DNA of 64,000 nucleotides from Escherichia coli (GCF_030013595.1 NZ_CP122768.1), one strand, 5' to 3'. Positions 33,301 to 39,300 are shown, counted from the first letter of the stretch. A program made the numbers.

Positions 33301-36300
33301 GGTTCTGGCAGATAATCAGGTATTCATCCAGATAAGATTTTATATTTTTGTTTTTTTTCACTCCCCCGAACAACTCCAGCTTTTGGGAGTTGGGGAAGTA
33401 TTTTGCATATTCGAAGGTACCATCGATAATCTGATTTTTTATTTCTCCCAGCAGACGCTCGGCGTACTTCACACCGCGCGCGTTTACTTCCATTCTGGAG
33501 AGGGGCTCCCGACACAGAACCCCTTTATATGTAAAAGTGATAACCAGAGTGCTACCAGTTTTATGCTGCCGAATAGTTACTCCTCTAGGGAGAGATAATG
33601 ATCCTTGTTCTTTCTTGCCCATTTTGTAATCTCCATTAAGTCGACCCAACGTTCTTTAACTCCGTCGACTTTTAATACATGTACCCCTTCTTTCCATATT
33701 CCTCTTTGTATCCGTTTGTTAACGGCATCAACCGTTTCTCCTGCGTTGCGGCAGTAGGTTGATATAGGTACGCAATCCAGCCCCACAGTTCACCTCACAC
33801 AACATTCAGCCCACGGCAGTGGCACCACACTTCAAACATTCGCCTCACAACTTCACGACAGTAGAAGCCGTCAACGTCTCGCGTCAGGTCATAGCGATTG
33901 CCGTAACGCTGGCGTACCCATAGCTCAAATGCTTTATTCATTCTCTATTTCCTTTTCATGGCTCGTAATTTTTTCAGATGAGCTTCCAGCTCTGTTTCTG
34001 CCAGAATTTGTCGGTATTCCTGGTGATCTATCCGTTCAAACGATTCATTAAAATCGCTTATTTTTACAGATTGTGTTCGCCCATCCATTCTTCTGTACAA
34101 CACAGTGTTGTTTATGCAGCGAATAATTTTTATCGGGTAACCGGCACTGTCGGTATACAGTTGCCCTTGATTAATCAAAGCGAACATTTTTTCTCCTGCT
34201 CTCTGAATAGTGAGAACTTCAGAGCCGTATGTTTGTAGCGGGTTCAATACTGATAATTTCTGCTGAGATAAGCATCCCGGCAAGCCAGAGTTCTCCGGAC
34301 AGGTCTTCATCCTGACATATCAGTTCGCCAATATTAATGGTGGCCATGATATCTGTTTCCCCTGTGCGCTCATCCTCGACTTCTTCATAAGGCAGCGTTG
34401 CGTACAGGCTTTCAATAGCGCAACTGATAACATCCAGTCCGGTCAGATTGCCGCCGACAGTAACTTCGAATGTTTCGCGGTATTCCCATAGTCCGAAAGT
34501 TAATCGAACGGTTTGTTTTGCCATGCGTCCGCATGACGTCAGATTCGGATCATAGTTCATTATTTGCGGTTGGGTATTATGGGTGTTCATCTGCTTTTCC
34601 CTTAGCCCGGCAGGTCGCCGGGCATATAAGTTATTTAACCTGGATAAATGGTGTACTGGCGCCGCTGGTCATGTATTGCGGCAGTGTGCCGTTCCATTTA
34701 TTGATGGCTTCCAGCTCCATAACACCGGGGTTCTGGCGCAGAGCTTCACCGCGTAAACGAATAGCATCGGCTTCAGCCTGGGCTTTTGTGCGAATCGCAT
34801 CAGCCTGTCCGGCAGCTTCCGCGCGCAACATGTTGGCTTCCGCTTCGCGCTGTTTAACTTCCTGCTCGCGCTGCAGTGTTTTCTGGTTCGCCGTGACTTT
34901 GGCATTAATGCTGTCGATAACGGTTGGCGGGTACTCCGGCTTACCCACATATGAGAGGCTCATTACCTGAATACCGATGGGCGTCATTTCTGCCTGAATG
35001 TCTTTAAGAGCTGCATCCAGCAGTTCAGACTTGCCGCCGTCGATAAATTTGTCGGTGGTCATTTTGCTGGCCAGTCGATTGAGTGCGTCGGCGATCTTTT
35101 GACGCAGGTCGGTGTCGGTAATGTCATCCACGCCTTTGCGGTAGGTCTGAAACACCGTGGTAACTTTGGATGGGTCAACTTTGTAGGCCACGCCGATGTG
35201 ATAGCCGATGGTTGTACCGTCACTCATCTGGAAACTGAACGGTTCATCGTAGGTCTTCATTTGTTTGAAGGTCGGGAAGATGTAAACTTCAGTATTCCAG
35301 CCGGTCCAGTAGCGGCCAACGCCAACCACTTCACCGACGCCTTTGTCGTCGCCCAGTTTATTTACCTTGATGCCAACATTACCTGGTTCAACGCGATCGC
35401 AACCGACAAGGCCAATGGTCGGAAGAACAATGGCTAAAGCAAAAATAACTTTTTTCATCTTTTACCCTTAGTGAAAGAAAGACCCTTGTAAATGGCATAA
35501 ATGCAGGGCGGGGTCAGAAACGCCAGTGCAAAGCCGGAAATGACTGCTACCGTATCCTTCATGGATATAAGGAACGGGACGAGTAGTCCGTAAATGCATG
35601 CGATAATTGCCAGTAAAATTACTATTCTGAAATACAATCTCATTGGTTTGTTGCATCCCGATATTTTTAACTGACTGACAGCGCAATAAAGAGAATAATG
35701 ATTTCTGTTAGTGTCAGTACTGTGGCAAGGATTAAAAGCAGTTTTACTCTGCTTAATTCACGGTTGCTTTTCATATAAACGGTTAGTAAAAAACGGAAGA
35801 ATTATATTCTTCTTAATATTTAATGTGTCACTGGCGCTTCTGGCATACCATGAGTATTCAGATCGTGAATCATTTCATCCAGAAGGAGTTCAAGCTCTTC
35901 GCGCCCCATAGCAGAGACAATGAAACCATTATTAGGATCTGCGATGAGCATTTTTTGATAGAGAAACAGAACTCGCCCCATGCCTTCAGCTTCACCATAT
36001 TTTTCAATAAATCCCCATTCGACATGGTTTTGCAGGGCAATGCGAAGTGGTCCTGGGTATATACTCATGCAACCATGCTTCCCCTTATAAATAACTGCGC
36101 GATCTGTAGTTCCGTTATCGTTAGGGATATCAATGGTGCCGTTCTTGTCTTCCACTTCACTGATAAATTTCGCTACATATAGCCAGCGCCACTGGGCAAC
36201 CTTCATATCGACTGAAAATTTGCCCAGCAGTCCGGCATCATCAGCTTCTGCAATACATTGCATGATTCTTAACCCGTGCCAGTATGGATTATCGTATTCA

Positions 36301-39300
36301 CCATCATTAAGCCGCTGTACGGCCTCAACATAATCAATGGTTGTATTGCCAATTTTTATGCCATGTGGCGTAACTTCTGGTCGGAACTCTGAATGATTCA
36401 TAATGTTTGCTCCTTTGCTGGTGGAATAATCGTGTAGCCAGCTCTTTTTGCCATCCACAGAAATGTATCCATGCAGCCAACGAATTCATTATCCAACAGA
36501 TGTTTTGAGTAAATTACTTCACCATTTTCAATGGTTAGCAACACTCTTACTTTTTTATGTGTTATGTTCTGTTGTTTTTCTTTCATTTATTTATCTCCCA
36601 TATGCTTTGCGCAAATACAGGTTGGCTATATGAAGATAAGAATCTCCATGTTGTGCAATGAGGCAGGCAGTTTTATACGATGCCTTATTTTTCAGGAAAG
36701 TCATAACTGAGTTCCCTCTATGAATAAAGGTTGTAACAATCCCCGGCGATAAAACCGTAATAAACGTTCAGAGCATGTTTGTTGTTATTGCGCTAGTTCT
36801 TTTTCGGCAGCAGCTTTTGCATATTCACATGCAAAATTCAGAATTTCGCTGCCGAGTGTTTTTATTTCGTTATTACTGGACATATGTAATACCTGTGTTG
36901 CATGCAATAAATGATAAACATTTACCGCAAATGAGTCCGGTTCCAGACAAATGCCTTCATAATCATCTTGCTGTGGGGTTGTTTCTGTCATTGCTCCTGA
37001 AGTGCATGCGAGCCTGTTTTTGACAATTCTCTTTCCTCTAATCACTATATCGGCTACATCTATTGCCTTTACAACCTCCGGGAGAAATTCCTGGTTTGTA
37101 TAATCAAAGTTATCAACATGGAGAACAGTTATGTTTTCGAACTTTTTCATGCGCAAGTATCTCCAGCTGTTGGTTTACCGGTTAACAGCCACATCGGGTC
37201 GCAACCAAGAACATTTGCCAGTGGGATAAGCATACTGATAGTTGGTTCATACTCTCCGCTTTCCCACTGGATGATGATTTCTTCATCGAGATCGAGCAGC
37301 CTGGCGAGTTCGGCGGTTGTTAAGCCGCAGGCTTCGCGTTGGGTGCGAATCCGATTCTGTGAATTAATGGCTAAATTTTGTTTGCATGAACGCGACGCGG
37401 TGAGGCTATATTTTTGAGTTACAGCCAGGATGGAGCTGGCAAGTTCAATTAACTCAGGGTTATTGCTGCTATACAGTAGTGCTCCAGCCCCTACTAAGAG
37501 TTGAATATTCTCAAGAGCATCGTGTTGATTTGTTGGTAACCCCATATACGATGACATTTTCCTCATCCTCTATAATTGTTTTGGTGAGTTCGATACTTAT
37601 GTCATGATAATAGGTTTACCTATTCATGTTGTCAATCGGTTTGTCGATTTTTTCAAAAAAAACCCACTCGTGGAGTGGGCGGGGATGTTAAATAATTATC
37701 GCTTATGCGAAACGGTGTAGCGTCATAGGCCAACTTACGATTACTTTTCCGTCAATGTGAAGTTGCTCGAAGTCATCTTGTTCGATAGCCCAATCTTTGT
37801 AAGCTGGATTGTCTGAGATCACTGTTAGGGTGTCTTTGATTTTTTGAAGCCTTTTGATGTGCGATGTTCCAGAGTATGTAAAAGCGTATATACCATCGCC
37901 ATTAAATGAGCGAACTGATACGTCAACAAACACCAAGTCCTCAGGGTTTATTGTGCCTTTCATGCTGTCGCCGTGGGCGTTTATTGCTTTGATTGCTGAT
38001 GCTGGTCTGCCGCCAAAAACTCTTGATGCGTATCCTGGTTCTATCGCTATAGATCTGACAATGTCTGGAAAATCAGAGTTATAACTACCAGGTCCGCAAC
38101 TGTATCTGATGTCTAAAACATCCACGACATACGAATCAGTAATCCTGTCTTCTGAAATGTTACGTATTTGGTGTGAGTCTGCAGAGGTCTCGATTTCCAT
38201 TGGACCGACACCAGATGCGAGCCATTCCGGGTTAACGCCCAAAACTTTTGCTATTTCAACTGTTTTCCTGGAACCGTTGGCTTTGTTAAGTAATTGATTG
38301 ACGCTTGACTGGGCCATACCTACTTCTTTGGCCAGCCTGCCTTGCGTAAATTTGGCGTTGCGCATAGCTAAATCAAGTCGTTCTGAAAATGTCATTGTGA
38401 TCTTCCTCTCCTCTCTATGTTGGGCAGTTTATCGGCTTTCCGATGAAACTTCTAGGTTTAACGTTGAATATCGATTTACCTATTGATAATATGTCGTCAA
38501 TAGGAGATGCGATTATGAAACATAAAGCTATAGAAAAAGCCATTGAGATTCTTGGGAGCCAACAAGCCTTAGCCAAGCGATGCGGAAAGGCTCAATCAAC
38601 AGTCTGTGATTGGCTTAACTGCAAGAACAAGATTTCACCCGAATTTGTGCCGTTATTGGTTGCAGCTGTCGACGGAAAGATCCAAGCGTATGAATTTCGT
38701 CCAGATCTACCAGAGCTTTTCCCACACCCAAGCTTAGCGCACACGGGGGAGGAGTGAGGTGCATGCTTGTTGATCGTAGAGAAATGAAAAGCGCCAGTGC
38801 GCGACGCTTTTCAAGAAATTATGCGGCAACCGTTTTTTCGATTAATGCCTGTTTTCTTGTGGGCTGTGAATACCGGATTTTTTCAGCGTCTCAATATGTC
38901 GGCGCAGATCGGAGATCAAAGTCTCAGTCATTTCGGGAGTAAGCGCGAAGAACTGAGTTTCTTGTGCTGAATCCAGTGGTTGCATAGGGGAAGTCAGGTA
39001 CTGGAATTTTAATGCTAGCGCACCATAACCGGGCAATGGTCCAGCCTGCCAGGCTGTAATAGGAAAAACAGGAATATCGTTTTTTTGTGACATGTCGAAC
39101 CTCCTTTGGTTCTTTTGTTTATAGGGATCAAAAAGATAACTGAAGGAAGGTTCGGCACCAACAAGTACGAATGTGCGGAATCTTAAAAGAATTTATCCGT
39201 AAGGAGATGGCAGTGAACACCGCAATTTTTAACGGCAAAGCATCCATGACCAGCGTTGAAATCGCAGAGCTGGTGGGCAGCCGCCATGACAAAGTGAAAC

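Follow-up and report, generated by a model that had tools for sequence, protein, structure and literature searches.

We analysed a stretch of 64,000 nucleotides from an Escherichia coli genome (GCF_030013595.1, NZ_CP122768.1; hereafter the window) that carries a prophage adjoining ypjA, and concentrated on the arm of that prophage lying between its xis/int genes and its repressor gene cI. A listing of the open reading frames (ORFs) of the window placed eight minus-strand ORFs in this arm, at 33945-37566, confirming the position and extent given by a sequence-only reading of the same DNA, which had proposed the arm as the best candidate in the window for an undescribed exclusion or anti-phage system. 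The arm and its borders comprise the following features, in which L numbers are genes of the Stx2e phage phiP27 (NC_003356/AJ298298).

33577-33786: xis, next to int, which is frameshifted here
33795-33941, minus strand: ORF of 48 amino acids (phrog_3871), between the DUF4222 gene and xis and just outside the interval of the sequence-only reading
33945-34187, minus strand: DUF4222 protein, 80 amino acids (phrog_285, phiP27 L03); the longest ORF extends to 34310
34219-34590, minus strand: DUF5406 protein, 123 amino acids (phrog_3409, phiP27 L04)
34605-34623, minus strand: GC-rich hairpin GCCCGGC-gacct-GCCGGGC, directly 3' of the SPFH stop codon and without a U-tract
34631-35458, minus strand: SPFH/Band-7 lipoprotein, 275 amino acids (phrog_200, phiP27 L05)
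35455-35643, minus strand: hairpin protein with two transmembrane segments (2TM), 62 amino acids (phrog_1130, 'membrane protein')
35820-36401, minus strand: ORF F, 193 amino acids (phrog_1515, phiP27 L06); the longest ORF extends to 36458 (212 amino acids)
36398-36586, minus strand: ORF G, 62 amino acids (phrog_340), no Pfam match
36785-37150, minus strand: ORF H, 121 amino acids (phrog_5451, 5e-81; phiP27 L08)
37147-37557, minus strand: ORF I, 136 amino acids (phrog_4836, HTH_3); the longest ORF extends to 37566
37703-38395, minus strand: cI, 230 amino acids, LexA-family repressor (helix-turn-helix (HTH) plus S24 peptidase; phrog_4, 5e-54; phrog_6201, 'CI-like repressor')

The arm matches phiP27 L03-L10 at 95.4% DNA identity over a stretch that begins directly after xis and reaches mid-ORF I, with the same genes in the same order. 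The right arm is phiP27-like too (93.3% identity over 47%), the remaining prophage resembles phiP27 and its sister phage PhiR49_2, and synteny in both arms together with a P27-type terminase places the element in the phiP27 family. Prophages in enterotoxigenic E. coli (ETEC) strains from pigs, ETEC1732 among others, match the 5-kb region at 100% identity; in ETEC1732 the element measures about 41 kb, ends at ssrA and encodes Q, a P27-family terminase, and HK97-type head and lambda-type tail genes. The prophage differs from phiP27 in its int/xis module and attachment site (ssrA/ypjA here), in its cI allele and the N-terminal domain of ORF I, in about 580 bp (L09) that phiP27 has in addition between L08 and L10, and in that the window holds no stx for this prophage. 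We conclude that the interval is probably the early-left operon of a phiP27-family temperate phage at the ssrA/ypjA locus, and that the region had already been deposited as phiP27 L03-L10. The 2TM gene upstream of the SPFH gene is unannotated in the phiP27 records (3304-3492 of the compared phiP27 sequence).

Each of the eight arm ORFs matches a PHROG family, with E values from 1e-23 to 1e-114, and in the comparison with phiP27 the synonymous divergence (pS) of each lies well above the non-synonymous divergence (pN); the SPFH gene differs by 28 synonymous and 3 non-synonymous changes. On these two grounds we conclude that all eight ORFs are real genes, and by their profile matches all fall in catalogued phage protein families. 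The contention that every ORF except one SPFH and one HTH protein is unassignable was too strong, as the DUF4222 and DUF5406 proteins also carry Pfam domains and the arm stands in GenBank under the phiP27 gene names. We did not adopt the 121-amino-acid form of the DUF4222 protein or the 212-amino-acid form of ORF F, since the PHROG profiles span the shorter forms end to end. The sequence-only reading had also described tightly coupled two-gene modules. Three pairs do overlap by ATGA (ORF I/H at 37150-37147, ORF G/F at 36401-36398 and 2TM/SPFH at 35458-35455), whereas the fourth, DUF5406/DUF4222, is separated by 31 nt, given the family-supported DUF4222 start at 34187.

No homologue of Exo, Bet, Gam, Kil, CIII or N was detected among the nine ORFs in PHROGs, NCBIfam or Pfam, or in the whole-prophage copy of ETEC1732, in which exo/bet-type recombination genes were found nowhere; an Rfam scan detected no RNA family within the left arm. 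The lack of lambda-type early-left functions that the sequence-only reading had pointed out is therefore real, but it is a trait of a known phage family. In other respects the arm resembles the operon read from the lambda leftward promoter PL (N, ea/b-region, kil, cIII, red, xis, int): it lies between cI and xis/int, reads leftward, has predicted operators at its promoter and consists of small early genes, and in PhiR49_2 this slot holds EaA/Ea22-type genes. Unlike the lambda operon, it has no counterparts of the six lambda proteins named above, its left operator region (OL) has two predicted operators and not three, and the scan predicted no internal terminator at which an N-type antiterminator would be needed.

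We next consider how the arm may be controlled. Terminator and promoter scans of the region downstream of cI, and a search for operator-like palindromes there and in the right operator region (OR), gave the following predictions.

37680->37662, minus strand: predicted intrinsic terminator, GCCCACTCCACGAGTGGGT plus a T-run, just 3' of the cI stop codon (terminator scan)
37635->37607, minus strand: PL candidate, a sigma-70 promoter TTGACA-17-TATTAT with 11/12 matches, pointing into ORF I (promoter scan)
37610-37648: OL, two 14-bp palindromic predicted operators, of which ATAGGTTTACCTAT (37610-37623) overlaps the -10 element and ATCGGTTTGTCGAT (37635-37648) abuts the -35 element
38431-38444, 38470-38483 and 38500-38513: OR, three copies of the OL operator motif between cI and cro

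The PL candidate lies 25 bp downstream of the terminator-like hairpin that follows cI, and the middle OR copy falls within the spacer of a rightward promoter, TTGAAT-17-TAATAT. The palindrome ATMG-N6-CKAT occurs nine times in the window against 2.9 expected, a number reached in none of 100 shuffles, and five of the nine sites lie within OL and OR. Two predicted operators around the promoter, with three more copies between cI and cro, make up the classical OL/OR layout. Because the promoter is preceded by a predicted terminator after cI and bracketed by predicted operators that recur in the cI-cro region, we infer that CI represses the arm as a PL operon, which would be silent in a lysogen and switched on early once the phage infects or is induced: the predicted terminator would cut the arm from the cI transcript, and the arm's own promoter is overlapped by the operator palindromes. 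A simple scan from the PL candidate to xis/int revealed no further minus-strand terminator and no strong internal promoter; the promoter scan was a consensus scan, which is insensitive to weak internal promoters. The GC-rich hairpin after the SPFH gene was not called as a terminator and is possibly a cassette boundary or a stabiliser of the mRNA.

To describe the distribution of the arm genes we compared them by megablast with 5426 complete E. coli genomes, 1061 of which contain pieces of the 5-kb region. The four gene pairs are represented very differently.

2TM + SPFH: match in 715 genomes, coverage of at least 80% in 217
DUF4222 + DUF5406: match in 412 genomes, coverage of at least 80% in 134
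ORF H + ORF I: match in 310 genomes, coverage of at least 80% in 16
ORF G + ORF F: match in 146 genomes, coverage of at least 80% in 79

About half of the matches to the SPFH cassette lie on plasmids of about 90-110 kb, a size at which the listed phage matches are P1-like. In PhiR49_2, whose right arm is closely related, the 48-amino-acid ORF and ORFs F to I are retained, and EaA/Ea22-type and other small genes take the place of the DUF5406, SPFH and 2TM genes. The genome counts and the replacement in PhiR49_2 indicate that the cassettes reassort independently, and we conclude from these comparisons that the arm is pieced together from interchangeable cassettes and is not one system. Relatives of ORF F (phrog_1515) and DUF4222 genes are also located in the early operon that runs from alpA to the primase gene of satellites resembling P4 or phage-inducible chromosomal islands (PICIs; ENA k141_60188 and the CFT073 PICI); helper-type prophages and satellites have these small genes in common.

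The most widely distributed cassette pairs the 2TM protein with the SPFH lipoprotein. The latter carries a Band_7 domain (PF01145, E = 8.2e-31, residues 22-208), which places it in the SPFH/Band 7 superfamily, followed by a coiled-coil region, and it begins with a signal peptide with the lipobox LVGC and Asp at position +2. Under the Lol-avoidance rule, Asp at +2 keeps a lipoprotein in the inner membrane, and the protein is accordingly predicted to be anchored at the periplasmic face of that membrane. HflK and HflC are its best solved and curated relatives and share the order of Band_7/SPFH domain and coiled coil as well as the predicted periplasmic orientation. In contrast to them, the phage-borne protein is predicted to be held by a lipid-modified Cys and not by an N-terminal transmembrane helix, and it scores far under the NCBIfam equivalog cut-offs (HflC, 24.7 bits against 134.4; HflK, 22.7 against 159.4); against the PDB it matches HflK at E = 1e-3 only. 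The coupling of an SPFH gene to a small membrane-protein gene upstream recalls the NfeD-SPFH operons (QmcA-YbbJ, YqiJK), but the 62-amino-acid partner is too short for the oligonucleotide/oligosaccharide-binding (OB)-fold domain of NfeD and matches neither an NfeD nor any other NCBIfam model; its sole match in PHROGs and NCBIfam is phrog_1130, in the PHROG category 'moron, auxiliary metabolic gene and host takeover'.

The same pair occurs on unrelated phage backbones. In the P2-like phage P88 it belongs to the Pe early operon, at a site between cox and the replication gene, with overlapping neighbours that leave no space for a promoter of its own; in P1 variants it lies just upstream of the ban helicase gene on the same strand, and in reference P1 the corresponding stretch is preceded by the Oban operators, which C1 controls. 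In vB_EamP-S6, a virulent N4-like phage of Erwinia, the pair is gp044/gp045 (70% identity). The two-transmembrane partners across these phages share weak but detectable similarity, and a tblastn search detected homologues of the SPFH protein in 668 phage records, among them Kayvirus, Kuttervirus, LUZ24-like, phiCbK-like and jumbo phages and haloarchaeal viruses. An identification of P1 plp/upl with the SPFH cassette was rejected, as plp of reference P1 encodes 125 amino acids on the opposite strand and only P1 variants carry an SPFH gene there. That temperate phages have the cassette in early operons, and that obligately lytic phages have it too, argues for a role in lytic development rather than in protection of the lysogen. 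Our literature searches on SPFH proteins with phage defence, prophages or superinfection exclusion found no functional study of a coliphage SPFH protein; the function of a phage SPFH gene has been called unclear (PMC13239085), and PM0222, an SPFH-superfamily protein of a Pasteurella prophage, is reported to be a virulence factor that activates Toll-like receptors 1/2 (PMC9872710).

ORF I, the first gene of the predicted PL operon, consists of an N-terminal domain (approximately residues 1-69) followed by an HTH_3 domain at 73-127 (PF01381, 1.3e-11), which is DicA-like in NCBIfam. Most matches to the ORF H + I pair end at a recurrent junction, 37349/37350, where the N-terminal domain gives way to the HTH domain; the HTH domain and ORF H are common to about 300 genomes, and the N-terminal domain is found in only 16. 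Given where these matches end, the first 69 codons of ORF I move together with the cI allele and the operators of this immunity module. The C-terminal half of ORF H is paralogous to this domain (both match phrog_4587, with 32% identity over 41 amino acids). The Prokaryotic Genome Annotation Pipeline (PGAP) gives ORF H 68 amino acids, a call that, judging from its homologues, is too short: the correct length is 121 amino acids, a form kept in homologues down to 57% identity, including MKKFENIT...DIV.R..IVKN, with an ATG at 37150 that overlaps the ORF I stop codon. The N-terminal extension is ambiguous by pS/pN and is backed by this protein conservation. ORF H has no Pfam, NCBIfam or PADLOC match. 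In a comparison with Xre-type toxin-antitoxin pairs, these searches assigned ORF H to no recognised toxin family, its C-terminal half resembling instead the N-terminal domain of ORF I; ORF H could be a decoy copy of that domain, by which the regulator encoded first in the PL operon would be tuned.

The two remaining cassettes gave fewer leads. The structure model of ORF F is confident and alpha/beta, and produced no informative fold match in a structure search; ORF F has no sequence-to-PDB and no Pfam match. Neither Pfam nor any other assignment takes ORF G past phrog_340, and ORF G is not a conserved partner of ORF F, as unrelated genes lie upstream of distant ORF F relatives. The DUF5406 assignment rests on PF17400 in a cluster representative (98% identical) and on PGAP, which names the identical ETEC1732 protein DUF5406 family. 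Members are widespread in proteobacterial prophages, always close to xis/int and with varying neighbours; a link to DUF4222 or to SPFH was rejected, as Pseudomonas and Pectobacterium prophages have DUF5406 near xis/int without either. Its structure model (predicted local distance difference test score 84) returned no informative fold match, and there was no sequence-to-PDB match. The DUF4222 protein matches PF13973 (E = 3.1e-15, residues 4-54). This is the family of RgdR (ECs1581/C1493), a small protein encoded, as here, in the early operon of a mobile element (a PICI or the cryptic prophage CP-933C), which reportedly activates the enterocyte-effacement locus (LEE) and its type III secretion system (T3SS) and represses motility (PMC3378721, PMC10877973); T3SS activation needs its RGD motif (PMC3378721). 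The protein described here has 80 amino acids against 99, is 22% identical to C1493 of CFT073, and has QGQ aligned with RGD.

Taken together, these observations are best explained, with a probability that we put at roughly 0.7, by an ordinary early-left operon of a phiP27-type phage under CI repression, whose accessory cassettes reassort independently of one another and do their work early in lytic growth. The arm genes would be silent in the lysogen, and infection or induction would produce one leftward early transcript running on into xis and int. Its first cassette would supply an HTH_3 regulator and the translationally coupled 121-amino-acid protein bearing a paralogue of the regulator's N-terminal domain; the second, a 62-amino-acid protein and a 193-amino-acid protein of unmatched fold; the third, the 62-amino-acid two-transmembrane protein and an SPFH lipoprotein facing the periplasm at the inner membrane, as HflK/HflC do; and the fourth, the small DUF5406 and DUF4222 proteins. 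The products would be non-essential early accessory or host-modulating proteins in the slot of the lambda ea/b-region and kil/cIII-type genes. Most plausibly, the SPFH cassette would build an HflK/C-like oligomeric assembly on the inner membrane and so alter membrane or FtsH-linked physiology early in infection.

Several points weigh against this explanation. The promoter, terminator and operators are all sequence predictions, and weak promoters in the gaps at 35644-35819 and 36587-36784 (about 180-200 bp) could allow expression of some genes in the lysogen. A role as early accessory or host-modulating protein is assigned to every gene by its position, the structure searches with ORF F and DUF5406 lent no fold-level backing to any specific activity, and the sequence resemblance to HflK/C is weak (24.7 bits against a cut-off of 134 bits). 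Superinfection exclusion is also performed early by virulent phages, so that location in an early operon is compatible with exclusion.

It is possible, although on balance doubtful, that the 2TM and SPFH genes, which are found together in phiP27-, P2-, P1- and virulent N4-like phages, form an early membrane module that is portable, pan-phage and dedicated to one undescribed function; candidates are an HflK/C-mimicking cage that would exclude the DNA of superinfecting phages or reprogramme FtsH-dependent proteolysis. We regard as unlikely the proposal that an undescribed superinfection-exclusion or anti-phage function resides in one cassette, acting at the inner membrane by a block to DNA entry or by abortive membrane damage, with 2TM + SPFH as the first candidate and HTH + ORF H as the second. 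Prophage exclusion genes are often found at this location: rexAB of lambda and sieB of P22 and Rac lie next to the repressor gene, on the left side of the immunity region, as the arm does. However, rexAB is co-transcribed with cI in lysogens, whereas here a predicted terminator separates cI from the arm and the arm promoter has predicted CI-type operators, and in PHROGs and PADLOC the arm genes show no sequence similarity to rexAB or sieB. Early exclusion proteins are also encoded by virulent phages, as exemplified by Imm and Sp of T4, and the mobility of the SPFH cassette across unrelated backbones, the membrane nature of both its products, the 'moron' category of the 2TM partner and the unclear function of phage SPFH proteins all suit such a module.

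Against it, seven of the eight arm ORFs and the flanking 48-amino-acid ORF have no match in PADLOC-DB v2.0, and ORF I matches only through its generic HTH (the HTH regions of RmrA, capH and PDC-M64), as does the flanking cI. The literature searches found no link of SPFH proteins to phage defence. The predicted CI-repressed promoter implies no expression in the lysogen, the P88 cassette inside an early operon has no room for a promoter of its own, and homologues in Gram-positive and haloarchaeal viruses point to a generic membrane role and not to a receptor- or injection-specific block. That the arm is the window's best candidate for an undescribed system is therefore not supported: besides the missing PADLOC system match and the predicted repression, its cassettes reassort independently, its SPFH cassette recurs in early operons of P2-like and P1-like phages and in virulent phages, and the region was already deposited. 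Nothing links the arm genes to a defence system that is recognisable or expressed in the lysogen, and the defence reading is unsupported. The sequence-only reading had held that assignment of the ORFs to ordinary early functions (Exo, Bet, Kil, N or Ea proteins) would speak against defence; homology gave no such assignment, and the idea is therefore unsupported rather than disproved.

A more specific version of the early-operon explanation casts the SPFH cassette as a cIII analogue, which would mimic or join the HflK/HflC cage, alter FtsH proteolysis of a phage regulator and bias the choice between lysis and lysogeny. The gene lies in the predicted PL operon, as cIII does in lambda, HflC and HflK are its closest curated and solved relatives, and its lipobox with Asp at +2 would put the SPFH domain on the same side of the membrane as HflK/C. 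The similarity to HflK/C nevertheless falls far under the family cut-offs, the cassette is common in strictly virulent phages, which make no lysogeny decision, and we identified no FtsH-sensitive CII homologue here, the 'CII-like' label of phrog_4836 being a family name only; we therefore judge this version still less probable than an exclusion module. Least credible is that the arm is lysogenic-conversion or virulence cargo, with the DUF4222 protein as an RgdR-like host regulator and the SPFH protein as a surface or outer-membrane-vesicle factor like PM0222, since, for all the reported effects of RgdR (PMC3378721, PMC10877973) and PM0222 (PMC9872710) and the closest matches in prophages of ETEC and Shiga toxin-producing E. 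coli strains, the DUF4222 protein is only distantly related to C1493 and has QGQ for the required RGD, CI repression is predicted, phages of non-pathogenic hosts and virulent phages likewise carry these families, and clearer moron-type genes lie elsewhere in the prophage family (bssS-like, OmpC-like, Lom). For all these rivals of the early-left operon, the positive evidence consists of position or a distant family likeness.

Further observations concern the other parts of the prophage and its surroundings. The integrase gene is frameshifted at ~32670 (32450-33649), with T6 here and T7 in ETEC1732, which splits a 390-amino-acid tyrosine recombinase into ORFs at 32387-33649 and 32451-32906; this could reflect a true pseudogene or a sequencing error in the homopolymer. 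In comparison with ETEC1732, the window also has 1.3 kb inserted at 41922-43228; the insertion interrupts an ATP-binding (DnaC-like) replication gene and is an IS3-family element, as indicated by an ALIL frameshift pseudoknot at 42780-42896 on the minus strand. The frameshifted integrase and the interrupted replication gene suggest that this copy of the prophage is defective. Downstream of rha, an isrK Hfq-binding small RNA (40091-40167) and a C4 antisense RNA (40192-40279), both above Rfam gathering scores, lie at the 5' end of an 'ash family' ORF (40034-40696) and form with it a P1 immI-like antisense-controlled antirepressor module, additional to cI/cro. Between cro and rha, PGAP annotates a lone minus-strand 'bssS family' gene (38842-39159) with a strong terminator-like hairpin (38813->38785) 3' of its stop codon, which looks more moron-like than any gene of the left arm. 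The late-regulatory region contains adjacent tRNA genes, a tRNA-Gly(TCC) at 49443-49517 and a weaker Rfam tRNA match at 49364-49436; in the ETEC1732 copy the pair lies downstream of Q and a methyltransferase gene, and an OmpC-like porin gene follows just after Q on the opposite strand. Outside the prophage, a chromosomal stretch of low GC content (32-43%) at 21000-28000, upstream of the ypjA autotransporter gene and with a tRNA(CAT) at 24336-24411, corresponds to the ypjA/ypjCB/glaH neighbourhood of E. coli.

Two things weaken the expectation of a hidden defence system that unknown genes in a position next to cI had raised, namely the arm promoter's predicted repression by CI and the mosaic spread of the cassettes. 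The OL and OR operators of this immunity type are defined here as predictions. The 2TM + SPFH cassette, for which we found no tested coliphage function, occurs in some 13% of complete E. coli genomes and hundreds of phages, virulent ones included. Its function would annotate a large family (phrog_200/phrog_1130) and could tie phage infection to HflK/C-FtsH membrane biology.

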